Source: a virus
Reading direction: 5' to 3' (one strand)
Length of the DNA: 64,000 nt
Virus record (IMG/VR): IMGVR_UViG_3300015203_000007
Span: 2,036-66,035 of that record
Positions within the stretch are counted from its first letter, which is position 1. Every line of letters begins with the position of its first letter. This document shows positions 7,516-54,969 of this stretch, in pieces. A program made the position numbers and the translations under genes. The notes under the pieces are model-generated. The model did no database searches. It was not told the origin of the DNA and was given only the letters and a program-made list of their open reading frames with translations.

Positions 7516-7797
7516 CTAGTTATCGAACTCCGATCTTGCTGTACGGAAGAATCCCGCAAGGTCTGTTTCTCTGTCCATGATGAGACGCGCGTAACCGGCG
7601 CGGTAAGCGTTGGGAAGCTTGTACTTTCCCTTCCCGTTATTACTAACCGTTCCTTCGTATCTCACCACTTCGTAGATCATGGCAATGCCACACTTCTTCA
7701 TGCCGCTGTTCTTGACGCTTCTTGCTAGTGTCACCAGACGGTCATAGACCTCAGGGTTGCTAGACAAGTAAGCTTTGAAGGATGCCTTGTTGGACAC
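7516..7797 (-). CDS. conserved-looking phage hypothetical protein
   Basis: 93-aa ORF, IYEVVRYE...KLPNAYRAGYARLIM...GFF pattern. Confidence 0.6.
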   Translation of the reverse strand: MSNKASFKAYLSSNPEVYDRLVTLARSVKNSGMKKCGIAMIYEVVRYEGTVSNNGKGKYKLPNAYRAGYARLIMDRETDLAGFFRTARSEFDN

Positions 7798-8342
7798 TAC
7801 TTCTTTCCCTTCTTCTTCTTGGCGGCGCGGATTGCGCGCTTAGCCTTGATGATCTCTTCGGAGTCGCGCGAAAGCTCTTCGCCTCTCAACCACGTTGTCG
7901 TCGGCTCGTAAAGCTGCTCTGGCGGGAACGTGCGGCATGCGCAGTTCGGGTCGTCGCACTTGCCGTACCCGCCCTTGACGAACTCCGTGATGTCCACGCC
8001 ATCGACATCAGCCTCGAAGGTGAACGCCGGGTGGTACTCGATCCGCTCGATGAACTTACCGATCTCACGCCGGTCGCTGCGATAGACGGTGTGCTCATCC
8101 TTGGCGCGTGCGCGCGTCACGTAACGCGCGGGAATCTTGATACCAGCCTTCTGCGCGATGATGTAATCCACCGTGGCAAGTGCTTCCACGATGGCGTTCG
8201 CCTCTTCCTCCTTGCCGGTCGGGCAGACGTGAAGGGCGATCTCTTCGCTCTCGTCTTCCGGGTTCGGCATGATCTGGAAGACATCGTAGTGGTATCGTTT
8301 GTCGAGCGGAACGACAAACTTTTTCGGCTTGAACTGTGTCAT
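7797..8342 (-). CDS. hypothetical protein
   Basis: 181-aa ORF with GGAG RBS and Lys-rich C-terminus. Confidence 0.6.
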   Translation of the reverse strand: MTQFKPKKFVVPLDKRYHYDVFQIMPNPEDESEEIALHVCPTGKEEEANAIVEALATVDYIIAQKAGIKIPARYVTRARAKDEHTVYRSDRREIGKFIERIEYHPAFTFEADVDGVDITEFVKGGYGKCDDPNCACRTFPPEQLYEPTTTWLRGEELSRDSEEIIKAKRAIRAAKKKKGKK

Positions 8343-10060: not shown

Positions 10061-10257
10061 TTCTTGAAGACCGCCACGCCGATACCGACGATGACGAGAA
10101 TGACGATAAACGCTGCGAACGGGATCCACAGCGGTGCCAGCACCCATAGCCACGACCAGTGAATGACACCGGTCAGCTTGAGCGCGATGAAGAGGACTGC
10201 GAGAAGAGTCGTGAAACCTGGCCCCACTGTCACGCTCGTCTCCTTGCTACCGGTCAT
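10057..10257 (-). CDS. small two-TM phage membrane protein
   Basis: LAVLFIALKLTGVIHWSWLWVLAPLW, a motif common in phage membrane proteins. Confidence 0.75.
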   Translation of the reverse strand: MTGSKETSVTVGPGFTTLLAVLFIALKLTGVIHWSWLWVLAPLWIPFAAFIVILVIVGIGVAVFKK

Positions 10258-12569
10258 ACTCTCTCCTTGACGGGCTTATTGGATGTGCGGGTCAATCCTA
10301 GCATATCCCGCCACTGATCGTAGCGGTGATCCCAGGTGAACTGCGAAGCGAACTCACGCCCGCGTTCGCGAAGAGTTGGATCGTAGTTTTCTGTGGCGAG
10401 CTTGAGTCTGTCGATGTACGCGCGCTGTCCGCTCGGGTGCCCCATCTGACGTGGAGATCCCTTGAGATTGAACACAACTTCGGGAAGTGCCCCTACGGGG
10501 TTGACCACCGGGATCACACCATTCATCTGCATCTCTAGGGCAGTGATGCAGAACGTCTCTAGGAAATTAGTCGGATAGAGCCATGCGTCACACGTCGTCT
10601 CTACCTTCTGTAGTTCCGGACGCGCCACACGATTGTGCCACTCTACTCCTAGGTGCTTGACAGCTTCGTACTGTTCTACGATTCCTGCCTTCATGTGTGC
10701 TAGCGGATGCTGTCCTCCACTCAATGCCACGATTCTGTCGAGCGCGTTCCATCCGTAGTAGACGTGAAGCTCTGCCTCAGGAATCTCATTCTTGATCGTC
10801 TCCCACATGGAGAGAAGAGTGTCAATTCCACGGTCAGGGCTAGAGGCGTAGATGAACTTTCCCTTCTGACGTTCTCCCCACTCGGGATAGTCAGCTAGGT
10901 TGATGCCATTCCCAATGACAGTGATCTTCTCTGGCTTGACACCGTAGATCCGCTGTTCGTGAACGGAATGGAAATCCGTCAGGCAGATAACGTGATCGGG
11001 CTTATCGAAGCGATTACCCCACGGCGACATTGCGATCTCCGGGCCACCCATGTTGATGTCATGGAGCCATAGAACTGTGGCAGTGCGTGCCTTGATCGGA
11101 GTGTCGAATACTTCGGGGGCGCGTACCGACGTGACGATGCCGAACTCTTCGTTCGGATCCCAGTCAGAAGAATCCCACCACTCGATTCCTTCGTCATCGA
11201 CCCCACGCTCATCTCCGGGAGTACCGAAGATCGCCGTGCGATAGCCGTCAGCCTTGAACCGACGTGCGATCTCATGGATGCACCACTCTGTTCCGCCGGA
11301 TCCCTCTGCGAGCGTCTTAGCGTTCCACGGCTCGAAGAGTGGGCGCGACATAAACGCGATGCTGCGCTGTGGGCGCTTGTGCTTGAGCTTCTTGCGGTCA
11401 GCGTCAGCCGTCTTGCTGTTGACGCGATCTCTGCGCTCATGCATCTCAGCCATGCGCTCACGGAGCTTCGGGTTATCCCAGTAGGCGAGCGCCTTATCGT
11501 AGTCAAGCTGCGCGCCGACGTAGTTGCCTAGCTCTGTTCTCGCGAGCGCACGTAGCGCGTACGGCGTGTAGTGCAGAGTCAGCGGTTCGCTGATCTGGTT
11601 CGTCTTTGGTTCCTGGCAGATTTCGATAGAGATGGAAGCAAACTCATCACACGCCTCGAACTCGCGCATTCCCAACATGGAGTGAGTTGCTAGCGCCCAC
11701 GACTCGGGCCATCTCGGACGGATCTTGATTCCCTGCATGGCGACATCTAGCGCCTTCGGGTACTCGCCCAGCATGCGGTAAGCGTCACCGATGCGATGAT
11801 TCGCGATGTAAGCGTCATCGCTGGTCGGATTCAGACGACCGAATGCGCCGTACATCTTGATCGCCTCACGGAAGAACGTGACACAATCCGAATCTCCCTG
11901 TTCCCAGAGGTAGTACGCCTCAGCGAAAGTCTCATTCGCGTGATAGTAGTGATACCTCGGCTCATCGGGATCTGCGGCAATGGCCGCTGCGAGAATGCGA
12001 CGGTTGCGCTCTCTGGTAGCACGATGCGTAAAGGGGTCAACGTCTCGATGATGCAGGACTAGCACATCATCGTAGTTGACAACATTGCTACCCGGACGTG
12101 TGTGGCAGATTTCGTGGATGCGATAGTACCATCTCCACGGCACCTTCGTACTCAGTACGCGCTCTCTCCACTGAGTAACACGGGGTGTTCCGTCCTTCTC
12201 GTCACTGGCGTAGATGTACGGAAGGAAAATCTGGTGCATGCCCTCTCTGTCGGCACGATCCAGCATCTTGTGAAACTTGTTGGCGTCACCGACAAGTGTG
12301 TCATCGGTGTCAAGCCACATCCACCAATCGTAGTCCTCCATAGAGAACATCGACAAGGCGTTGTTTCTGGCCTTCGAGAAGTTGTCTTCCCACGGATGAT
12401 GTGCGACCGTCATATTGTCCTGTAGACGGTAAGGGAAGTCCTTCTGCTTGCCATTGTAGGACACGTAGATGTGGTCTGCTACGTCGATCACGGATCGAAG
12501 TAGTGCATCCCAGTCCTCTGGCTTCTGACCGTCCCCCACGATGAGGGACAGGGCTACGCGGTGCTTCAA
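10254..12569 (-). CDS. multidomain glycosyltransferase: GT2 + TPR + GT4
   Basis: TTG start after AAGGAG; WEDNFSKARN, WLDTDD, WYYRIHE (GT2); helical TPR region (RYHYYHANE, ALDVAMQGIKIRPRWPE); YASSPDRG, FLETFCITALE.Q..G (GT4). Confidence 0.85.
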   Translation of the reverse strand: MKHRVALSLIVGDGQKPEDWDALLRSVIDVADHIYVSYNGKQKDFPYRLQDNMTVAHHPWEDNFSKARNNALSMFSMEDYDWWMWLDTDDTLVGDANKFHKMLDRADREGMHQIFLPYIYASDEKDGTPRVTQWRERVLSTKVPWRWYYRIHEICHTRPGSNVVNYDDVLVLHHRDVDPFTHRATRERNRRILAAAIAADPDEPRYHYYHANETFAEAYYLWEQGDSDCVTFFREAIKMYGAFGRLNPTSDDAYIANHRIGDAYRMLGEYPKALDVAMQGIKIRPRWPESWALATHSMLGMREFEACDEFASISIEICQEPKTNQISEPLTLHYTPYALRALARTELGNYVGAQLDYDKALAYWDNPKLRERMAEMHERRDRVNSKTADADRKKLKHKRPQRSIAFMSRPLFEPWNAKTLAEGSGGTEWCIHEIARRFKADGYRTAIFGTPGDERGVDDEGIEWWDSSDWDPNEEFGIVTSVRAPEVFDTPIKARTATVLWLHDINMGGPEIAMSPWGNRFDKPDHVICLTDFHSVHEQRIYGVKPEKITVIGNGINLADYPEWGERQKGKFIYASSPDRGIDTLLSMWETIKNEIPEAELHVYYGWNALDRIVALSGGQHPLAHMKAGIVEQYEAVKHLGVEWHNRVARPELQKVETTCDAWLYPTNFLETFCITALEMQMNGVIPVVNPVGALPEVVFNLKGSPRQMGHPSGQRAYIDRLKLATENYDPTLRERGREFASQFTWDHRYDQWRDMLGLTRTSNKPVKERV

Positions 12570-12616
12570 GAGCACTCCTTTCGCATCGACTGTGCGAAGC
12601 GTATCACACTGGTAGG

Positions 12617-12704
12617 CGGATGCTGTGGGAATCGAACCCACGGGGGCTTTCTAGTTCCCCAGCCGCTTTCTAGGCGGTGTCCTCGTCCGTGCCGGTCAAC
12701 ATCC
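12617..12704 (-). tRNA. tRNA-Ser(AGA), class II, no encoded CCA
   Basis: Acceptor GGATGTT/AGCATCC, G73, anticodon arm CCGC-CTAGAAA-GCGG, long variable arm GGGG..CCCC, T arm GTGGG-TTCGATT-CCCAC. Confidence 0.8.
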
Positions 12705-13091
12705 GAGAATGCCAAAAACCAACCGGGCTGCTCGAAGACTCGGGGATCTTCGTCCAGAATCTAGTCACCGGATTGGTTTTGGGTTTTGAGGCACCTATGC
12801 GCCGTGCCTCCCTGCGCGTGTAGTCCGGTTTCTTGTTTACCGGAGAATCAGGATGTAACTACAATATTTTTCATAATATGTAGGCCCTGACTACCAAGCG
12901 TCTGCTGCTAACAGTGCCGATTTCTCGACAAGATCCGTCCGCGCCCGCTAAGACTCGGCTGCCGTATCCTCCCTCGCCGGTTGGCCCTGGTCAGATAAAG
13001 CTTTTCGATCCCCGGTTGTACCCGTGCCCGTTACACAAAGGCTTTTACGGGTGTCTACAGAGTCTCGGCACCGTCGTGCTCCGACTCCATA
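12705..13091 (-). ncRNA. candidate large structured non-coding RNA (~385 nt), family unknown
   Basis: No credible ORF; at least 8 helices visible, including a 10-bp long-range stem; own promoter at 13097-13124. Confidence 0.6.
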
Positions 13092-13096
13092 TCTGG

Positions 13097-13124
13097 AAGA
13101 TAGCAGACTTCTAGGGCTTGTCAA
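13097..13124 (-). promoter_or_regulatory. sigma70/SigA-type promoter, extended -10
   Basis: TTGACA-N16-TATCTT with TG at -15/-14; near copy of the promoter at 54942. Confidence 0.75.
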
Positions 13125-13347
13125 GGAATCCGCTCGGAACTTCTCCGAGGATCCTCTTGGCGAGTCCTTCGATTGCGTCCGGCGCAACCGAATGGAGATC
13201 GTGCGCTACGTCTGCGGTGGGATCATCGACCCACCCCTTCTTGGCCGTCCAGACCTGAACCGGCTTGAATGCGGCCTTGCGGTAGATGTCTCCTACGCCG
13301 TAGTAGTAGCTGAAACCCTTACCTGGTGCGAACATATCAGTCGCCAT
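13111..13347 (-). CDS. small hypothetical protein directly downstream of the multi-enzyme effector
   Basis: 78-aa ORF, TAATG overlap with the 877-aa gene stop. Confidence 0.6.
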   Translation of the reverse strand: MATDMFAPGKGFSYYYGVGDIYRKAAFKPVQVWTAKKGWVDDPTADVAHDLHSVAPDAIEGLAKRILGEVPSGFLDKP

Positions 13348-15980
13348 TACTTGCCCTTCTCTGCTGGAACGATTGTGACTGGAACCTTAGAGAACCCATG
13401 CTTCTTGGCTGCCGCATGAGTAGCGTTCCCATCAATCACATCATACCTACCGTCATCACGCTTTGCAACCTTGAGCGGTGCACGCTTCTCGATCTTTCCT
13501 GCTGCGGCATCGCGCATACGCTTCTCGGCGGCAGGAACCCTAGTGCGAACCTCATCATCGGGCTTCGTGGACTTGAGATCGCGCACGTTCACCATCTTGG
13601 ACTTGGAATCCGTCTTGAAGTAGTCGGAAGGCTTATCGGGAAGCTGATCGAAGCCCACGATCTTCTCCCAGACGCCGTTGTACAGCGCCTTCATCTTGGC
13701 GTCGAGAGCTTCGACCTTGTCTTCGTCTTCCTTTGTCGGCCCACCGGGCTTACGCTCCATCGAACGCTGTTCTTCGTACATGGCGTGACCCTGGCCGTTC
13801 TTCGCTAGGAACATCTCATTCCAGTTGAACTGTAGCTCGATCTGGAATCCTGTGTCCGTCTCAAGGCGAATCGCGAGATCACGGTATCCAGCCTTTGTTG
13901 CCCCTCCCACTCCGGGACGGCGCTTGTCTTCGTAGAGCTTGGATTCCATCTCAGTGATGTTCCATCCACGCTCTTCGGCGTGCTTCATCACGCTTCGTAG
14001 CGCGTCAGCGATATTCGCAGGATGTGGCACTAGAACTGTGGCACGTACCAAGTCAGTGATCTTCGACCAGTCACCATTGTTCTTGTCAGAAGACACCTTC
14101 TCGAATGCAGCGTCATATGTCTTGTTGGGAGCAATGACAATGTGATTGTCATTCTTGTGCGAAGCGACGTACTCCATTGCTGCCTTGAATCCAACCTTGG
14201 AACTCTCAGCGGAAGACACGTCATGCACCTTTGCGCCAATGTCCTGCTCTACGCCGACACCCATATCCAGTAGGAACTTGAAACCGTGCAGCGCGTGATT
14301 CGCCATCTCGAATAGCTCGTCATCGTCCTTTGTCGGCTGTAGCGCCTTATCGACTAGTCCCGCCATCTGCGCTTCGGTCAGAGAGTCTTCGATGTCGTCC
14401 TGTAGCTTGCCCTCGAATGCCTTGACCTGATCGTCATGGGAAAGCGCATCCTGCTTCTCGTTAATCAGACCACGGCCGAACTGCTTCATCCACTCGACGC
14501 GATCCTTTAGCGCCTGCCGGACGTTCTCTCTCAGCGCAAGGTCTTCGTAGGGAGCCTGGTCTACCAAGTGGTCAATGGCGTCAGGGGTAAGACGCTTGGC
14601 GATCTTCGTAGCCTGCTCACGCTTCTGTAGCGGAGTCACGATCATCTTGCCCTTGGCCTGGCCTCCACCTTCCATCATCGACCAGACTTCGCCGGGAGTA
14701 GACCCGAAAGGCTTCGTAGCGCCCTGCGCACGGAAAGACAGCGTTCCACCCTGGTCTAGACGCATCGGCCCCTTGTCAGTCCAAAGGATGTTGTCATCTG
14801 TCAGTCCAATGACATCCCAATTGGCTAGGAGGGCATCGACCATGAAATTCTTTCCAAGCGTTTCGCTCGGCTTGATCTTGTTGATCGTTCCGTCTGCGGC
14901 AGGGTATGTGAGAGCGGTGCGTCCCTGGTGCTCAATCGAACCCGCGCGTGGAACTGGAACGTCCATCGCTCGATAAATGGCGTTCGCTAGTAGCTCTGTG
15001 GCAACACGATCCTCATTGCCATTGTAGTGCTTGAGTAGCCATCTCTCGTCAGGATGTGGAGAGTAGTCACTGAGGATGCCCTTGTCGCGACCACGGTTCA
15101 ATAGCTTGTGTGCTTCGTTCGGTGGCACAAGCTTGAATCCCCACGTCTCCGGGTTGGATACTGGGCCATCGTTTCCCGTGCGATCAGCGATGTACATTCG
15201 CGTGGTAGTAGTGTCACCATCGTAGTCACCTAGATATCCGGCGATCTTGCCCTTCAATCCCGTCTCTTCGTAAAGCTCGCGATGCGCGGCCTGCTGTAGA
15301 GACTCGCCGGGATCCTTGTGTCCCTTGGCGAAGGTGTGCTCGTATCCACCAAAGTGATTCGATGGCTCACGTAGCCAAATACGACCGTCAGGCTCACGTA
15401 GCAACATCCCGGCAGACTCGATTCCCTTGCTGTCAGGCTCGTTCACGTTTACGTCAGGCGGAAGCGCATATGGCGCTAGGGGTGCGTGACCCATCTCGGC
15501 CAGAATGCTGTTCGCTCTCTGCTCGGCGGCGTCATGCGTATCGAACTCACCGATCACCTTCTGCTTTTCGTACGTTCCTGCGCTGTTGTCGATGAGCTTG
15601 TGGACGTGATCCTTCTTGTCTTCCTTGATGAGCAAGTGACCGCGCTTAGACCCACCCCAGGTGTGTTCCCAATCGTGCTGAATAGAATGCGGAATCGGCT
15701 TTCCGCCCTTACCAAAAGCCTCTGTCTTCGTGCTAGTTGGTTCCATGTGCAGAGGATGTGCAGAAGGTGTCGCCCACTTAGCGCCATTCGATCCTCCTGC
15801 CGGTGCGCCGATCTTGAGCTTCTTGTTGAAATACTTCGGCATCTTGAACATCGAACCGAAATGTCCGTGGAAGCCGCGCTTGTGCTTTGCCTCGAAAGCC
15901 GGATTCTTGATCTCATGCTGAATGTAGGCAAGGTTGATCCGATAGCCGCGCTCTGTCTCTGTCAGGATTAGATTGTCCAC
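13347..15980 (-). CDS. polyvalent protein: Nudix + atypical kinase-like + RelA/SpoT alarmone synthetase + ParB/Srx-like
   Basis: Perfect Nudix box GHKDPGESLQQAAHRELYEETGL; kinase-like LLKHY..E, NWD..G...DNIL, RLDQGG; RelA/SpoT EK..DLVRAT..GYRD..ELQ..GH..YE; C-terminal VIDGNATHAA. Confidence 0.75.
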   Translation of the reverse strand: MDNLILTETERGYRINLAYIQHEIKNPAFEAKHKRGFHGHFGSMFKMPKYFNKKLKIGAPAGGSNGAKWATPSAHPLHMEPTSTKTEAFGKGGKPIPHSIQHDWEHTWGGSKRGHLLIKEDKKDHVHKLIDNSAGTYEKQKVIGEFDTHDAAEQRANSILAEMGHAPLAPYALPPDVNVNEPDSKGIESAGMLLREPDGRIWLREPSNHFGGYEHTFAKGHKDPGESLQQAAHRELYEETGLKGKIAGYLGDYDGDTTTTRMYIADRTGNDGPVSNPETWGFKLVPPNEAHKLLNRGRDKGILSDYSPHPDERWLLKHYNGNEDRVATELLANAIYRAMDVPVPRAGSIEHQGRTALTYPAADGTINKIKPSETLGKNFMVDALLANWDVIGLTDDNILWTDKGPMRLDQGGTLSFRAQGATKPFGSTPGEVWSMMEGGGQAKGKMIVTPLQKREQATKIAKRLTPDAIDHLVDQAPYEDLALRENVRQALKDRVEWMKQFGRGLINEKQDALSHDDQVKAFEGKLQDDIEDSLTEAQMAGLVDKALQPTKDDDELFEMANHALHGFKFLLDMGVGVEQDIGAKVHDVSSAESSKVGFKAAMEYVASHKNDNHIVIAPNKTYDAAFEKVSSDKNNGDWSKITDLVRATVLVPHPANIADALRSVMKHAEERGWNITEMESKLYEDKRRPGVGGATKAGYRDLAIRLETDTGFQIELQFNWNEMFLAKNGQGHAMYEEQRSMERKPGGPTKEDEDKVEALDAKMKALYNGVWEKIVGFDQLPDKPSDYFKTDSKSKMVNVRDLKSTKPDDEVRTRVPAAEKRMRDAAAGKIEKRAPLKVAKRDDGRYDVIDGNATHAAAKKHGFSKVPVTIVPAEKGK

Positions 15981-37360: not shown

Positions 37361-38134
37361 TTAGGCAGACGCCTCCTGCATCTTGGCGAATGCGCGGTCG
37401 AATGCGTTGCTGTCGCCCAGCACGTTGCTGCTAGCTGCGGCAGCTACGGCATCCTCACTGCGCTTGATCTGTGCGAGCGGAACGCCCTGTAGTAGCTGCT
37501 TCTGCACATCGTACGTCTCCGGGATCGTGAACTTGCGGACATTGAACTTCTCGGCCGCGAGCTTACGGTCGTCCTCGGACATTGCCTGCGGGCCACCGTC
37601 CGGGTCAGCCGGGTCGATGGCGTAGTTCGTGTCGAATCCCTGGCCGGTGCGAACCACGGTGAAGTCACGGGACATCAGTCCCTTGAAGGCGCGATCCTTC
37701 TGCGCGAGCGTGGAGAAGAGTGTCGTGCCACTGTTCCACACCTGAACCTGATCGGACGTGCCGATGATCTTGTACTGAGACGTGATCGGATCCTTGACCG
37801 GCACGCCATTGTTGTCACTCAGGTAGACCGGCGCGTCACGCATGATGAGATTGATCCATCCCTTGATGAGACGCTTCGCGCCCTGCTCGCATCCGTAGCA
37901 CGGAATGCCAGCGTCATCCTGGTTGAGACACGGAGTGACCTTGGCTACCTTGCCGGGAAGTGCGGGGATCTCATGCACGTACGCCCACTGCACATCGTCA
38001 CCCTGTTCCAAGAAACGGACGGTGTACGGGTGGTTCGGCTGGAACCTCGCGAACTTGACGAAGCCCTCACCGAACGCGGCCTTTCGCTCCTGCGCCTGTG
38101 CTGCTGCCTTCTGAAAACTCTCGAACCCTGCCAC
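37361..38134 (-). CDS. single-stranded DNA-binding protein (gp32-like)
   Basis: VRFL, HE, C..C.YC Zn ligands, RTGQGFDTNY, C-terminal tail; replication block. Confidence 0.7.
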   Translation of the reverse strand: MAGFESFQKAAAQAQERKAAFGEGFVKFARFQPNHPYTVRFLEQGDDVQWAYVHEIPALPGKVAKVTPCLNQDDAGIPCYGCEQGAKRLIKGWINLIMRDAPVYLSDNNGVPVKDPITSQYKIIGTSDQVQVWNSGTTLFSTLAQKDRAFKGLMSRDFTVVRTGQGFDTNYAIDPADPDGGPQAMSEDDRKLAAEKFNVRKFTIPETYDVQKQLLQGVPLAQIKRSEDAVAAAASSNVLGDSNAFDRAFAKMQEASA

Positions 38135-45134: not shown

Positions 45135-48100
45135 CTATTCGTCGAATACTAGCGCCTTTGCACTAGAGTCGTTTACCGATGTCGAGTCAGAAGTGTCACT
45201 GACTGTAGTGCTATCAGAGATGTCGCTGAGTGCCGTCACTGTGGCGGAATCCCAGACGTTGACGCTCGATCCTAGAATGTCCCAGATCGTGACAACGCCC
45301 CACATATTCTCGGAACTGAGATACGCTACTCCGGTGGACGTGTTGGTAGAGAATCCGTGTAGGTTGCGTGTGCGATTGAAGTGAGCCGTTCCGCCAGATG
45401 TGCTTGTGCTGTTGGCGAAGAGTCCGTGCTTGATCGTCAGCTTGACCATGCCGGTAGAGACGTTGACAGAGCACGCCGTCATTCCGCGTGTGCGTACCAG
45501 CTTCGTCACTCCGGTAGACATGCCGACAGACATGGATGCGAATGCGCGTGTCCGTACTAGCTTTGCTACACCCGTAGATGTGTTTACAGAGATGGCAGCA
45601 AGTGAACGTGCCCGTGCAAGACTTGCGATTCCCGTAGATGTCGAGAACGACAGGGCAGCGAAAAGCTTGATTCCTGTTCCATTCCAAACACCTGTCGAGC
45701 TTCCTGTCGAGCGTGCAGCGAATGCACGAACGCGCACAATGGATGCAATTCCGGTAGAAGAACTGACCGAAATGCACGATAGTGCACGGGTGCGTCTGAT
45801 TCCGCAGACGCCGGAAGATGTGCCAATCGAAATCGCCGCGAAGCTTCGCGTACGAATGAGCGCGGCACGTCCTGTAGATGTTCCCACAGAGATGGCCGCA
45901 AACGTGCGTGTACGCCCCGTAGAGCAAACGCCAGTGCTAGTAGAGGTAGAGCGACCAGCGAACGTTCTAGTGCGGTAGCAGGTCGCCTGTCCGGTAGATG
46001 TGCCCGTAGAGATCGCAGCGAATGCGCGACTACGAACGAGCGTCGCGATGCCAGTAGAACTTCCACTCGATCTTGCGGCAAGGGTCTTAGCTGCAAACGC
46101 GAGAGTTGCGATACCAGTGGAGTTGGACTGTCCTAGGTAACTCGATCCAAGGATGAATCCTCCAAGGCCAAATGTCGATAGCGCACTGAACGTTCTTACG
46201 CGAGTGACACTAGCGATTCCACTAGAGGTATTGACAGATGTGGCAAAGAGGTTCTTCGATAGACCAGAGAACTTGGCGACACCCGTAGACGTTCCGCCGG
46301 AGATAGCTACTAGAGGCTTGATGCCGGTCGGGAACGATGCTCTTCCTGTAGAGGATCCTGTAGAGATTGCTGCGAGCTTGCGGGCGCGCACAAGCGTGAC
46401 TAGTCCAGTAGAGCTTCCAGTCGATACCGACGTTAGGTTTCGTGTCCGAAGAAGAGTCGCAACCCCTGTGGAAGATCCTGTGCTTACGGCACTAAACGAA
46501 CGAACCTTCACCAATGTCGCTACGCCTGTGGAGTTTGCGGCGTAGCCTAGGATCTGTGGCAGATAGACAGGCGTGTAGACAGAACTCTTGGAGATCGCAC
46601 CGAACGTGCGAGTTCTGATTACTGTTGCTAGACCAGTAGAAGAACCTGTGGATACGGCGCTTAGTGGGCGCGTTCTAGCAAGTGCAACTACGCCTGTCGA
46701 AGAACCTGTGCTTACCGCTGTCAGATTGCGCGTTCGAGAAAGTGTGGCGATGCCGGTGCTGGAACCAGTGCTGATCGCCGTGATAAACTTCCCGACACTC
46801 TTTAGCAGACCGGCGATACCAGTAGAAGATCCTGTGGAGATCGCGTTTAGATTGCGCGTGCGTACGATCTGCACTACGCCTGTAGAACTTCCCGTAGATG
46901 TGGCGATGAGAGAACGCTGACGAACTAGCGTTGCGCGTCCCGTGGAAAGTCCGAGAGCAATCGCGAAGAGTGATCTTGTCTTGGCAAGAGTGCAGACCCC
47001 CATAGACGTTCCTGTGCTTCGTCCTGTCAGGGCGCGAGTGCGTACCAGCGTGGCGATGCCCGTGCTTCCGCCAGAGCTAACGGCACCAGAAGTTCGGACT
47101 CTAGTGCAACTAGCTGTACCGCTAGACGTTCCGCCAGAGACAGCCGCGAAGGTGCGGATGCGTACCATCGTTGCAACGGATGGAGAAGATCCGGTGCTGA
47201 CAGCATTTAGAGTGCGCGTACGCGCGAATGTCGCAATTCCTGTGCTCGATCCGGTGGCCTGAGCGTAGAGCGTCTTCGACGTACTCTTGAGAAGTCCAGC
47301 GATGCCCGTGGAGGATCCCGTGCTTACGGCATTCAGATTGCGCGAGCGCGCTAGTGTAGCTACGCCGATAGACGATCCTGTACTTACTACTGTTAGTACG
47401 CGCGTACGGATAATTGTGACAGTACCCGTGCTGGAACCTGTGCTTACGGCGAAGAGTAGCTTGCTACCACTCTTTAGCAATCCAGCAATGCCAGTGGAGC
47501 TACCGGTCGATACCGCATTCATTCCACGGGTACGAACCAGACTCGTTACCCCTGTAGATGCCCCCGTGCTGATTGCATTCAGATTGCGAGTACGTACTAG
47601 TGTGCACGTACCTGTGCTCGATCCACCGGACACTGCGGCAATAGAACGAATACGAACTAGTGTGGCAATACCAGTAGAGTTGGCCGCATATCCTAGAATT
47701 TGTGGTAGATACGTTGGGAGATAGACACCTGTGCGAGAAATCGCGTAGAAGATCCGCAGCCTTCCCGTCGTCACGATTCCTGTAGAAGATCCTGTACCTA
47801 CCGCCGCGAAGGTACGGGTACGCGCAAGCGTTGCTACTCCTGTGCTCGATCCCGTGCTGACCGCAATCAGCTTGCGAGAACGAACCAGCGTAGCGATGCC
47901 ACTTGATGCCCCTGTAGATGTTGCGATGCAGCTTCTTGCGCGTCCTACTGCGCAGACACCGGAAGATGTTCCGGTCGATACTGCGATCAGACTGCGAGAG
48001 CGTACCAGCGTTACTACGCCCGTGCTTCCGCCAGTAGAGACGGCGATCAGATTCTTGCTCTTAACAAGCGTAGCTCTTCCCGTGGAATTGTTGGACATCT

Positions 48101-49916
48101 TCGAGCGGATGTAACTGAACTCTGTGCCCTGGAATGCAGACTGAGCGAACCACACGTTCGTATCCACCATGTGCATGTTTCCAGCGTGGAGAGAAATCGC
48201 CTTGTCGATCTGAGTCACAGTAGTTGCGGCGTCAGGGATGTTATATACGAGATGCAAGTAATGTCCTGTTTCGTACTGATCCACCCACGTCGGTGCTACG
48301 TAAGAGTCATAGTCAGGAGACGGTGGAGTTGTCTTCGGCCCCTCGAATGTGCAGACAATATCAGCAAGAGCCATGTAGCTCTTGTCAGGATTGTTTCCGC
48401 AATTGATGATGATACGACATCCAGGATAGTTCGCACGGATGAAGTCAGTGAAGTCCTTGTAGTATTGCCAATTCGTAATGTCACTGCTTACCTGGTCGAT
48501 AAAGATGTCATGGATTCCGTAGTAAGTTACCCAGTCAAGAACCTGCTGATGGGTAGTTGTCGTGGAAATCGTGGCGTACGATGTGTCGATGTATCCATAG
48601 ATCGTGATGCCATTAGCACGCGCATTAGCAATGACAGCCTGGTAGTTCGTATCCGTGAACGTTCCTGGGCCACCCGGAGATCCGGGGTTGGCAATGATTC
48701 CGTGAACGACATCTCCGGCGTTCGTCCAAGAGTCCCAGACAGTGCGCGGAACTCCACCGGGGTAGATGTAAGCCGGAATGATGATCTTTGCTGTGGCAGT
48801 TCCCGCCGCGAACTTGCGCGTGCGCGTCCATGTGGCAATACCAGTCGATGCTCCCGTAGCGATTCCAGCGAATGTACGTGTTCTGCGCAAACTGACAATT
48901 CCTGTCGAGTTAGGTACTCCACTGGACACTGCGGCAGTTCTACGTGTGCGCGCGAAGTACGCTGTGCCCGTGCTCGATCCATTGGAGATCGCCACCATTG
49001 TCTTGTAAACCTGACCACCACCACCGGCAGGCTTGAAGGAAATCATTTCGATGGCGACATTCGAGATCGCTGTTGGGAACGAGTGAGCGTCCGTCAGCGA
49101 ACCAGTACCAGCATCCTTGCGATACGAGTAGTTGACCTGGTAAGTCGTCGGAGATCCGCCGGATCCTGTGGCCTCCGTACCGGCTGTCCATCCGGAAGTG
49201 GAGTCAGTGAATCCAGAGCTTAGGGAGTTGCCCTTCCACGCCGAGAACGTGATGATGAGTTCGTTCGCCTGTGCCAGAGAACCAGACGAGATGCTTACCG
49301 GGCTACTAGTTCCTCCGGCTGTTACCGCGTTGATGTCAAGCGGAGAAGATGTTGCCTGTCCCGTGAAGGAAAAAATCTTCGCGTCGCGAAGTGTGGCAGC
49401 CGCAAGAAGTGTGATCGTGATGACATCCGTAGAAAGAATGTCGCGTGTCGTTACGCACCAGAATGCGCGACCCTTGATGCCTACCTGAGAATTAGCATTG
49501 ATGAGCGTGTAGGCGTTTGCTGTTCCCGCCTGAGACGAGTTATCCGCGATAGACGAAACAATGAAGTCTGCGGAGTTGGTCATGTATCCGACTAGCAGAG
49601 TTCCAATCGGGATCTTCGCTGTTGGCGAGAACGTGTAAGTAGAACCGGATCCACCGGCTCCGTATTCCATGACCTGAATCGGGCCAACCCAATTGGCACC
49701 GGCAGACGGGAACGTGGCTAGTCCTGTAGAACTGCCCGTCGATACCGCAGTTAGATTTCGTGTACGTACGAGCGTGACAATACTGGTAGACGAACCAGTA
49801 GACACTGCCGCGAGAGTCTTGATTCCACCAACAGCAATAGCTCCGCGTGCAGCATATCCCTGCTTGAAGCTCGGATCTTCGCGAGTCGAGTGACGTACTC
49901 GTCTGTTGTTAGCCAT
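45135..49916 (-). CDS. 1593-aa Ser/Thr/Gly repeat protein with embedded spherulin-4 (GH135-like) domain
   Basis: ~50 copies of a 20-aa unit RxRxLxAxSTGSSTGxATLx; IIIPAYIYP, IIANPGS, GYIDTSY, IFIDQ, IINCG, VCTFEG. Confidence 0.75.
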   Translation of the reverse strand: MANNRRVRHSTREDPSFKQGYAARGAIAVGGIKTLAAVSTGSSTSIVTLVRTRNLTAVSTGSSTGLATFPSAGANWVGPIQVMEYGAGGSGSTYTFSPTAKIPIGTLLVGYMTNSADFIVSSIADNSSQAGTANAYTLINANSQVGIKGRAFWCVTTRDILSTDVITITLLAAATLRDAKIFSFTGQATSSPLDINAVTAGGTSSPVSISSGSLAQANELIITFSAWKGNSLSSGFTDSTSGWTAGTEATGSGGSPTTYQVNYSYRKDAGTGSLTDAHSFPTAISNVAIEMISFKPAGGGGQVYKTMVAISNGSSTGTAYFARTRRTAAVSSGVPNSTGIVSLRRTRTFAGIATGASTGIATWTRTRKFAAGTATAKIIIPAYIYPGGVPRTVWDSWTNAGDVVHGIIANPGSPGGPGTFTDTNYQAVIANARANGITIYGYIDTSYATISTTTTHQQVLDWVTYYGIHDIFIDQVSSDITNWQYYKDFTDFIRANYPGCRIIINCGNNPDKSYMALADIVCTFEGPKTTPPSPDYDSYVAPTWVDQYETGHYLHLVYNIPDAATTVTQIDKAISLHAGNMHMVDTNVWFAQSAFQGTEFSYIRSKMSNNSTGRATLVKSKNLIAVSTGGSTGVVTLVRSRSLIAVSTGTSSGVCAVGRARSCIATSTGASSGIATLVRSRKLIAVSTGSSTGVATLARTRTFAAVGTGSSTGIVTTGRLRIFYAISRTGVYLPTYLPQILGYAANSTGIATLVRIRSIAAVSGGSSTGTCTLVRTRNLNAISTGASTGVTSLVRTRGMNAVSTGSSTGIAGLLKSGSKLLFAVSTGSSTGTVTIIRTRVLTVVSTGSSIGVATLARSRNLNAVSTGSSTGIAGLLKSTSKTLYAQATGSSTGIATFARTRTLNAVSTGSSPSVATMVRIRTFAAVSGGTSSGTASCTRVRTSGAVSSGGSTGIATLVRTRALTGRSTGTSMGVCTLAKTRSLFAIALGLSTGRATLVRQRSLIATSTGSSTGVVQIVRTRNLNAISTGSSTGIAGLLKSVGKFITAISTGSSTGIATLSRTRNLTAVSTGSSTGVVALARTRPLSAVSTGSSTGLATVIRTRTFGAISKSSVYTPVYLPQILGYAANSTGVATLVKVRSFSAVSTGSSTGVATLLRTRNLTSVSTGSSTGLVTLVRARKLAAISTGSSTGRASFPTGIKPLVAISGGTSTGVAKFSGLSKNLFATSVNTSSGIASVTRVRTFSALSTFGLGGFILGSSYLGQSNSTGIATLAFAAKTLAARSSGSSTGIATLVRSRAFAAISTGTSTGQATCYRTRTFAGRSTSTSTGVCSTGRTRTFAAISVGTSTGRAALIRTRSFAAISIGTSSGVCGIRRTRALSCISVSSSTGIASIVRVRAFAARSTGSSTGVWNGTGIKLFAALSFSTSTGIASLARARSLAAISVNTSTGVAKLVRTRAFASMSVGMSTGVTKLVRTRGMTACSVNVSTGMVKLTIKHGLFANSTSTSGGTAHFNRTRNLHGFSTNTSTGVAYLSSENMWGVVTIWDILGSSVNVWDSATVTALSDISDSTTVSDTSDSTSVNDSSAKALVFDE
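45300..48090 (-). repeat. 60-nt (20-aa) degenerate tandem repeat array inside the 1593-aa gene
   Basis: e.g. RSRSLIAVSTGTSSGVCAVG / RARSCIATSTGASSGIATLV / RSRKLIAVSTGSSTGVATLA. Confidence 0.85.
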
Positions 49917-53447: not shown

Positions 53448-53485
53448 GCCGAGAGCGTAGCACATGTGGATCGAGAACGGAATCC

Positions 53486-53515
53486 TTGACAAGCGGAGGG
53501 ATGACCTGATAGGAT
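53486..53515 (+). promoter_or_regulatory. sigma70-type promoter for the plus-strand block
   Basis: TCC-TTGACA-AGC (same 12-mer as the 13119 and 54942 promoters), N18, TG-n-TAGGAT. Confidence 0.55.
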
Positions 53516-54932: not shown

Positions 54933-54941
54933 ACGAATTCC

Positions 54942-54969
54942 TTGACAAGCGTCAAAAGTGTGCTACCTT
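54942..54969 (+). promoter_or_regulatory. sigma70-type promoter of the tRNA array
   Basis: TTGACA-N16-TACCTT, extended -10 TG. Confidence 0.75.

Follow-up and report, generated by a model that had tools for sequence, protein, structure and literature searches.

A conserved 34-nt pseudoknot in the probable leader of a phage tRNA-Ser/glycosyltransferase transcription unit

What does a gene-free, hairpin-rich interval of several hundred nucleotides (nt) do when it lies between a promoter and a tRNA gene in a viral genome? The question is raised by a tRNA-operon interval on the minus strand of the IMG/VR virus record IMGVR_UViG_3300015203_000007 (66,109 bases, estimated to be 64% complete), almost all of which is covered by the 64,000 nt analyzed here (hereafter the window; positions 2,036 to 66,035 of the record) and which occurs in public sequencing runs that are soil metagenomes. 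An earlier note, made from the letters of the window, had proposed that the interval, which adjoins tRNA-Ser(AGA), specifies a new multi-domain non-coding RNA family of about 385 nt. The interval is best read as the untranslated 5' leader (12705-13090, ~386 nt) of a tRNA-Ser/glycosyltransferase transcription unit and, with a probability of roughly 0.62, as a mosaic operon leader that carries a cis-acting boundary or 3'-end element. Comparative sequence analysis gives good support to the presence within it of a member of a conserved structured RNA family absent from Rfam 15, namely an H-type pseudoknot of 34 nt.

No conserved family of ~385 nt emerges from the relatives, some of which have no interval while others have segments swapped or deleted. 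Homologs of the glycosyltransferase encoded beyond the tRNA were found at 62-66% identity on six Logan contigs (L002, L003, L004, L005, L087 and L088), and in all six a tRNA-Ser(UGA) lies directly upstream of the glycosyltransferase gene, 54-82 nt after the previous gene and with no interval. A TATAAT-like -10 box stands close upstream of the tRNA in five of the six (where the upstream sequence could be read); in L003, L004 and L088 a terminator hairpin followed by TGCTATAAT or TGCTATGAT precedes the tRNA, L002 having the hairpin only. Since the promoter thus sits directly on the tRNA in these relatives, whereas ~386 nt separate a similar TGCTAT-type promoter from the tRNA in the window, the interval appears as an insertion relative to its kin. 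Among 80 more distant glycosyltransferase loci from IMG/VR, neither the tRNA nor a homolog of the RNA was found.

The part of the leader that is kept can be read from closer relatives, represented by contigs from four runs (X2, X3, X5 and X6) that were aligned to 12000-13800. In X3 record 7, 12425-12717 (the glycosyltransferase start and the tRNA) is retained with 7 differences in 293 positions (97.6% identity), 27 nt replace 12718-12784 and form, on the minus strand, a textbook terminator hairpin (UACAAAA GCGUACC UGAAAC GGUACGC into UUUU), and 12785-12845 follows with 3 differences before the contig diverges upstream of 12845. In X6 record 21, only 5 nt connect the tRNA to 12787-12843 (0 differences), 12710-12786 being missing; X6 record 23, a 4-kb contig, has 12785-12845 with 6 differences, then 8 nt and a different tRNA (GGGAGGUAGCUCAGCC...); and X5 record 16 has 12790-12847 with 6 differences, after which it diverges but keeps the A/U hairpin, the inner A/U hairpin of a predicted junction (Table 1) being, as judged from a 30-nt loose end, a perfect hairpin of 7 base pairs (bp) there. 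Because all four alignments, in four different contigs, break at 12785-12790 and at 12843-12847, the 61 nt from 12845 to 12785 are the only constant piece. A leader built of lineage-specific hairpins around this one kept module is the arrangement that these alignments suggest.

The pseudoknot forms the core of the module. In the window, its 7-bp stem pairs GAGGCAC (12810-12804) with GUGCCUC (12794-12788) across a 9-nt loop and its pseudoknot helix pairs CGC (12818-12816) with GCG (12802-12800; alignment columns 7-9 with 25-23), GCAGG remaining unpaired as the 5' loop before the stem and AA after it. The family as a whole is laid out as a helix of 3-4 bp, the loop GCAGG, the 7-bp helix, one G, a 4-nt loop ending in AG and then AA, with a stem consensus of GAGGCAY / RUGCCUC around a 9-nt loop. 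A first scan of IMG/VR with GGAGGCAC-N9-GTGCCTCAAA returned nine loci, and in the eight real ones the same sequence recurred at positions that the pattern had left free: CGCAGG ahead of the stem and, within the loop, GG...YAG. A second scan, in which purine/pyrimidine changes were allowed in the stem and complementarity was not required, returned 48 loci, and 42 further distinct instances of the pseudoknot in IMG/VR were aligned with the window copy (alignment A2).

Across A2, 99.6% of the 7-bp stem is paired, and two of its pairs show compensatory changes: 23 sequences have U-A and 17 have C-G at the innermost position (pair 21-31), with no mixed combinations, and two sequences have G-C instead of A-U at pair 16-36. 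Pair 18-34 is G-U in three sequences, wobbles that suit RNA of the sense strand only. The search pattern placed no constraint on columns 7, 8, 24 and 25 of the short helix; there, 24 sequences have C-G and 16 have G-C at pair 8-24, which is never unpaired, and pair 7-25 takes five forms (A-U, C-G, G-C, U-A and G-U), with 39 of 40 sequences paired. Standard pairs occupy 95.2% of cells, as against 82.9% in shuffles; the covariation score of 0.355 was reached by none of 500 shuffles; and slid registers leave 19-50% of cells paired, compared with 95% in the proposed structure. On these comparisons, covariation strongly supports both predicted helices. Covariation among homologs was a check that the earlier note had itself suggested, and GAGGCAC/GTGCCTC is the only one of its listed helices that comparative data back. 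A covariance model finds one copy in the window (55.5 bits, E = 3.7e-11). With an unchanged 12799, the short helix would gain a fourth G-C pair from a minus-strand A-to-G variant at 12819 that is seen in X3, X5 and X6. Weak matches to the model in L008, L026 and L017 lie in coding sequence and were discarded. L091 was set aside as a chance match; it also carries a match to the GIR1 branching ribozyme (L091:1192-1371 on a 3-kb IMG/VR contig; 54.8 bits, E = 9e-10, below the gathering score), which suggests a eukaryotic ribosomal-DNA-intron sequence filed as viral.

The motif has no match in Rfam 15, riboswitch and ribozyme families included, is absent from 50,697 cultured-phage records, and matches once, on one contig of a metagenome-assembled genome, among 185,579 prokaryote species genomes. 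Literature searches by motif sequence returned nothing relevant, with the supplement of PMC10690425 (8,495 candidates, which may include the motif) lying outside the search. The carriers of the motif, with one or two copies per viral record, are soil and aquatic phages that have only a distant replication module in common. In 33 of the 34 cases with an upstream open reading frame (ORF), 2-14 nt separate the end of the stop codon from CGCAGG, and the distance from the motif to the next start codon ranges from 3 to ~250 nt, with 12-33 nt in about half. Twenty-one instances lie downstream of a gene for a gp32-type single-stranded DNA-binding (SSB) protein, at a spacing of 14-22 nt in four cases. 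A UvsX-like recombinase gene follows the motif in 20 instances, and in six a phrog_16 helicase gene comes 49-170 nt further on. Other instances precede a DNA polymerase or HNH endonuclease gene, tRNAs or small ORFs, and a gene for an Hc1-like DNA-binding protein is found upstream of many. The window phage has SSB, UvsX and helicase genes of these families as well, 20-28 kb from its motif (the SSB gene, 37361-38134, being 24 kb away).

The positions 2-5 nt past the stem are enriched in U, and a T-run of at least three occurs in 17 of 43 instances. In L124 and L127, the motif is followed by U6-7 and by perfect TTGACA-17-TATAAT promoters, and in the marine phage contig L145 a promoter with the same -35 box as the window, there as CTTGACAAGCCC (reverse strand, ~6998), ends 7 nt before the motif. 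In L131 and in X6 records 21 and 23, 8-17 nt separate the motif from the start of a tRNA. Neither in the window nor in L134 is the motif preceded by an ORF; it lies inside a non-coding leader there, and the stop-codon context, which is typical of the motif but does not belong to its fold, is lacking. L134, from a 146-kb contig that also has a glycosyltransferase homolog (L025), repeats the layout of the window, in the order TTGACA-16-TATACT promoter, tRNA-like element, ~190 nt of non-coding RNA, GAUUCUCCGG with the motif, ~60 nt and seven tRNAs. The tRNA-like sequence of L134 (reverse strand, ~7797-8186), with a CUCAUAA anticodon-type loop and a GGGUUCGACUCCC T-arm, was not called by ARAGORN; on another viral contig, L135, read in the orientation of the motif, ARAGORN called a transfer-messenger RNA (tmRNA) gene 636 nt upstream of the motif. 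Four other identities for the motif were rejected: a repeated phage-polymerase promoter, because it occurs once in the window; a sigma54 promoter, because the spacing, judged by eye, is unsuitable; a stimulator of readthrough or frameshifting, which the spacing to stop codons would fit, because the phase varies, no slippery site is present and the window and L134 have no upstream ORF; and a mimic of CRISPR repeats or a repetitive extragenic palindromic element, because there is one match among the prokaryote genomes.

At its upstream end, the interval begins behind a sigma70-type promoter to which a promoter scan gives 10 of 12 consensus matches. The earlier note had called this promoter a near copy of that of the tRNA array, and 36 of 45 positions are indeed identical to the promoter at 54942-54969, including the CAGATATG start region; behind the latter stand 19 tRNAs, and in the array leader, as in the interval, CAGATATG is immediately followed by a hairpin. 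The CCTTGACAAGC box occurs a third time near ~53484, and the extended -35 box (T)CCTTGACAAGC is common to at least three promoters of the window (13116-13132, 54934-54950 and 53478-53494). Transcription would be expected to start near 13090. The same note was right to describe the interval as free of ORFs and as ending at the 5' end of the tRNA: the minus strand has stops in all three frames and no ATG-started ORF of at least 15 amino acids (aa), and the tRNA-Ser(AGA) called by ARAGORN at 12704-12615 adjoins it. A small protein gene was rejected for want of a credible ORF, and a degraded gene remnant because tblastx against the neighborhoods of relatives gave chance matches only. Cleavage by RNase P at tRNA 5' ends is general tRNA biology, and if this tRNA is processed as usual the leader would be released there. 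The glycosyltransferase, whose TTG start is 45 nt past the tRNA, is the first gene after tRNA-Ser and is probably co-transcribed with it, a terminator scan from the tRNA to the TTG start at 12569 having returned no terminator-like site; it heads a glycan-synthesis island.

Structure prediction adds less than the wealth of helices might suggest. All 22 helix arms listed in the earlier note are present, including ACGGTGCCGA at 13074-13065 and TCGGCACTGT at 12920-12911; by our own estimate, ~0.4 long-range helices of 10 bp with one G-U pair are expected by chance in 387 nt. Measured against dinucleotide shuffles, the minimum-free-energy z-score of the whole interval on the minus strand was -2.4 or -2.2 in two runs, and because the plus strand reaches only -0.6 the minus strand may be the relevant one, this being a mild sign. 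The interval does fold better than its shuffles, a comparison that had been proposed as a check, but it stays within the range of coding sequence in this phage: 63 minus-strand segments of the same length have a mean z of -0.70 (standard deviation 1.29), and as ~10% of them are as low, folding alone does not set the interval apart. Sub-segments have z-scores of -1.5 to -3.0, no homologs of the 5'-terminal hairpins (13020-13091) were found in the collected loci, and the statistical support that these predictions lend to the folding of the interval is modest overall.

Searches for known families and for homologs of the interval concur. Rfam 15 gave no family for the interval, either at gathering thresholds or at E up to 10 on 12500-13300, the one match being that of the tRNA itself to tRNA-Sec. 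The earlier note could not match the RNA to GOLLD or ROOL, and neither model matches even at this limit. A tmRNA was rejected (none called by ARAGORN in the window, no Rfam tmRNA match, and 5' GGAGUCG and 3' GCAUCCG unpairable by eye), as were RNase P RNA, a group I intron and 6S RNA (no Rfam match) and a Y RNA, the partner of Ro60 (no YrlA match in 12500-13300 and no TROVE gene in the 66-kb record). The region had no blastn match among the 50,697 phage records, protein-anchored IMG/VR searches with the two flanking proteins found no close relatives, and exact-pattern IMG/VR scans for the 61-nt module and for the 5' half of the tRNA gave 0 matches. The single match of a metagenome scan proved to be LuxR-type coding sequence, and that of a pattern for hairpin 1 was one coding sequence; both were dismissed as chance. 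Of the 387 nt, the pseudoknot alone has homologs among the collected loci, related or motif-bearing, which total 1.16 Mb.

Because the pseudoknot elsewhere sits a few bases after stop codons, at the boundaries of genes or cassettes, it is here read as a boundary element. The host-type sigma70 promoter (13124-13097) would drive the leader through tRNA-Ser(AGA) and probably into the glycosyltransferase island, and the pseudoknot would mark a boundary in cis and probably form or protect the 3' end of the upstream RNA. It could act like a terminator where a U-tract follows, and where a tRNA begins 8-17 nt downstream, the RNase P cut at that tRNA would leave the pseudoknot as the 3'-terminal structure of the upstream RNA. 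It probably serves, in addition, as shared sequence for recombination among relatives. Intrinsic terminators and 3' stabilizing hairpins offer one parallel, in that the element stands right after stops, has a GC-rich stem and is followed by a U-rich tract in 17 of 43 instances; the X3 relative, moreover, has its canonical terminator hairpin just downstream of the 61-nt module. The element differs from them in the AAC/AAA spacer between its stem and the U-tract and in the many copies, including that of the window, that have no U-tract; terminators, unlike it, also have no conserved loop or flank sequence and no pseudoknot. A second parallel is provided by the PeSLs (promoter-early stem-loop cassettes) of T4-type phages, where a small conserved stem-loop accompanies a sigma70-type promoter at gene boundaries (PMC2839356; PMC4122927): perfect promoters stand downstream of the pseudoknot in L124 and L127, L145 has a promoter ahead of it, and here too the conserved element is exactly where close relatives part by insertion, deletion or replacement. 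Nevertheless, PeSLs are simple hairpins that are joined to an early promoter, occur in many copies per genome in hyperplastic regions and are conserved only within close phage pairs (PMC2839356; PMC4122927), whereas the pseudoknot has covarying helices, is present in one or two copies per record, retains its sequence even in very distant phages and adjoins a promoter in only a minority of instances, so that it does not qualify as a PeSL.

Several observations weigh against a leader with a boundary element. The stem in the window is followed by AAAACCCAAAACC rather than a U-tract, and a terminator scan was blank on this strand, which excludes a classical terminator for this copy. Conservation of the nucleotides in the loop and flanks (CGCAGG, GG, YAG and CAA) goes far beyond what a stability hairpin needs and points to a specific protein or ligand partner, with the proviso that the invariance of unpaired bases in A2 is partly imposed by the search patterns and is independent only in the eight first-scan matches. 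No RNA run is listed among the public sequencing runs with the stretch, the RNA start being inferred only. The interval holds 32 complementary 6-mers against a mean of 21 for comparable segments of the genome, which places its inverted-repeat content in the top 5%, and X5 record 15 keeps 12789-12982 at 93% identity over 194 nt without gaps, so that the middle of the leader is not drifting freely within the nearest kin. The last two points speak for the proposal that the whole ~385-nt transcript is a discrete, stable, multi-domain RNA, released by RNase P and acting in trans like GOLLD or ROOL, with the pseudoknot as one of its domains. So do the strong promoter and the lack of an ORF, the z-scores of the 5' hairpins (-3.0) and the junction (-2.4), an ORF-free gap of 463 nt (541 nt in the window) in a relative whose 78-aa upstream protein is 87% identical, and the nearly identical X2 contig, with ~2 differing positions in the RNA against 3.5-12% in the flanking coding pieces. 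GOLLD and ROOL, large ornate RNAs of phages and prophages, are likewise non-coding, phage-borne and adjacent to tRNA genes (PMC12286853), but the interval is shorter than these RNAs, is not conserved as a whole and gives no sign of a large conserved fold. That the transcript is such an RNA seems improbable given that neither its 5' 272 nt nor its 3' 81 nt has a homolog among the 50,697 phage records, the 80 glycosyltransferase loci and the 1.16 Mb of loci, that phages with a 62-66% identical glycosyltransferase do not have the interval, that the X3 relative, whose tRNA and glycosyltransferase start are 97.6% identical, diverges upstream of 12845 and swaps the 3' hairpin which X6 deletes, and that ~10% of the segments of this phage match its full-length z-score.

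Conservation of unpaired bases would also suit a putative operator for a protein, most plausibly a gp32-type SSB, and the SSB-UvsX context makes such an operator the main rival, if an unlikely one. In the leader of T4 gene 32, a pseudoknot 67 nt upstream of the start codon nucleates cooperative binding of gp32 over an unstructured stretch and thereby represses downstream translation (PMC3014915); Rfam has no model for this operator (PMC10690425). By description rather than by sequence, the T4/T2 operator resembles the phage element, both being compact H-type pseudoknots in a replication/recombination module with a gp32-type SSB and both without an Rfam match. By reading, the stretch from the motif to the ribosome-binding site is A/U-rich and G-poor, the start codon is 12-33 nt away in about half of the instances, and the window phage has the SSB, UvsX and helicase families whose genes flank the motif elsewhere. 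An operator fits less well with the way the motif hugs the upstream stop while the next start may be anywhere from 3 to 250 nt away, and with its location 3' of SSB or other genes and not in the leader of the SSB gene as in T4; in the tRNA-operon leader of the window, 215 nt, a hairpin and a whole tRNA intervene before the next start codon. Should the analogy with T4 apply there in spite of this, which we consider unlikely as well, the tRNA/glycosylation operon, or a released decoy RNA, would be tied to the level of free SSB. A more elaborate variant, in which the pseudoknot would be a sensor or decoy for a gp32-type SSB, another factor or a ligand on a stable, RNase P-released and trans-acting leader, appears rather doubtful; if it were true, tRNA-Ser supply and virion glycosylation would be linked to the state of replication. 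Least probable of all is a small-molecule aptamer, such as a guanidine-III-like riboswitch, or a small self-cleaving or processing element for polycistronic or pre-tRNA transcripts. Its compact 34 nt, its highly conserved unpaired positions and its order of strands, which we take to be the topology of the guanidine-III pseudoknot, would suit one, as would its intercistronic sites and its position immediately ahead of tRNAs, both frequent settings of phage ribozymes. Such a role is very hard to reconcile with the absence of a match to any Rfam riboswitch or ribozyme family, with a loop of only 4 nt crossing the short helix, with the lack of a conserved alternative expression-platform pairing and with downstream genes so varied (recombinase, helicase, polymerase, HNH endonuclease, tRNAs and small ORFs) that no coherent regulon results.

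Table 1. Features of the tRNA-operon interval and its surroundings, in window coordinates.
Feature	Position	Strand	Details
877-aa multi-domain protein	13347-15980	minus	ParB-like tail at end
78-aa ORF	13111-13347	minus	
sigma70-type promoter	13097-13124	minus	-35 TTGACA 13124-13119; 16-nt spacer; upstream TG; -10 TATCTT 13102-13097
tRNA-operon interval	13091-12705	minus	gene-free; between the 78-aa ORF and tRNA-Ser(AGA)
Two 5'-terminal hairpins	13091-13056, 13052-13020	minus	local fold -29.7 kcal/mol; z = -3.0; 0/200 shuffles as good
Predicted three-way junction	12820-12895	minus	closing helix GUAGUC/GACUAC; hairpins 12883-12859 and 12844-12824; single-sequence z = -2.4
61-nt module	12785-12845	minus	kept among close relatives; unrelated flanks in four contigs
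H-type pseudoknot, 34 nt	12786-12819	minus	core of the 61-nt module
Variable 3' structure	12714-12784	minus	AAAACCAA/UUGGUUUU around two hairpins; local fold z = -1.6
tRNA-Ser(AGA)	12615-12704	minus	weak D-arm, long variable arm; ARAGORN
GT2-TPR-GT4 glycosyltransferase gene	10254-12569	minus	771 aa; TTG start at 12569; translation and homologs

The tRNA itself is of an unusual type. Rfam gives it a tRNA-Sec match only (37 bits, below the gathering score); among the tRNA-Ser of the relatives, that of L004 alone passes the Rfam tRNA threshold, the others scoring as sub-threshold tRNA-Sec because of their odd D-arms. The tRNA-Ser beside the glycosyltransferase gene has the anticodon AGA in the window and UGA in all six relatives (L002:1487-1572, L003:2860-2946, L004:1189-1277, L005:3389-3472, L087:2077-2160 and L088:3392-3473). 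The switch is consistent with serine codon use in this phage, where UCU is the commonest (81 of 234) and UCA is rare (3) in a serine-rich fiber gene at 45135-49916. In several of these tRNA-Ser, the loop of the variable arm repeats the anticodon loop, CUAGAAAG being present twice in that of the window. The 5' half (12660-12695, minus strand; odd D-arm and anticodon arm with a CUAGAAA loop) matches several soil contigs with 2-8 differences (X3 records 9 and 10, X5 records 13 and 14, and X6 record 22), and as the variable and T arms are different there, tRNAs of this type appear to form a wider group. In two relatives, a Ro60/TROVE gene lies near the tRNA-Ser, one gene away in L003 (764-2398) and directly upstream in L088 (1711-3321), and upstream of the TROVE gene of L003 there is a weak match to YrlA, a Y RNA-like family (143-198; 31 bits).

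If the reading of the interval as a mosaic leader with a cis-acting boundary element holds, the notable object at this locus is the 34-nt pseudoknot and not the 386-nt interval, and folding alone is insufficient grounds for annotating a gene-free, hairpin-rich phage interval as a new large RNA. The pseudoknot is a concrete target for work on RNA-protein interactions or RNA stability, and its occurrence at boundaries and directly before tRNAs could explain how these phages define transcript ends and swap cassettes.

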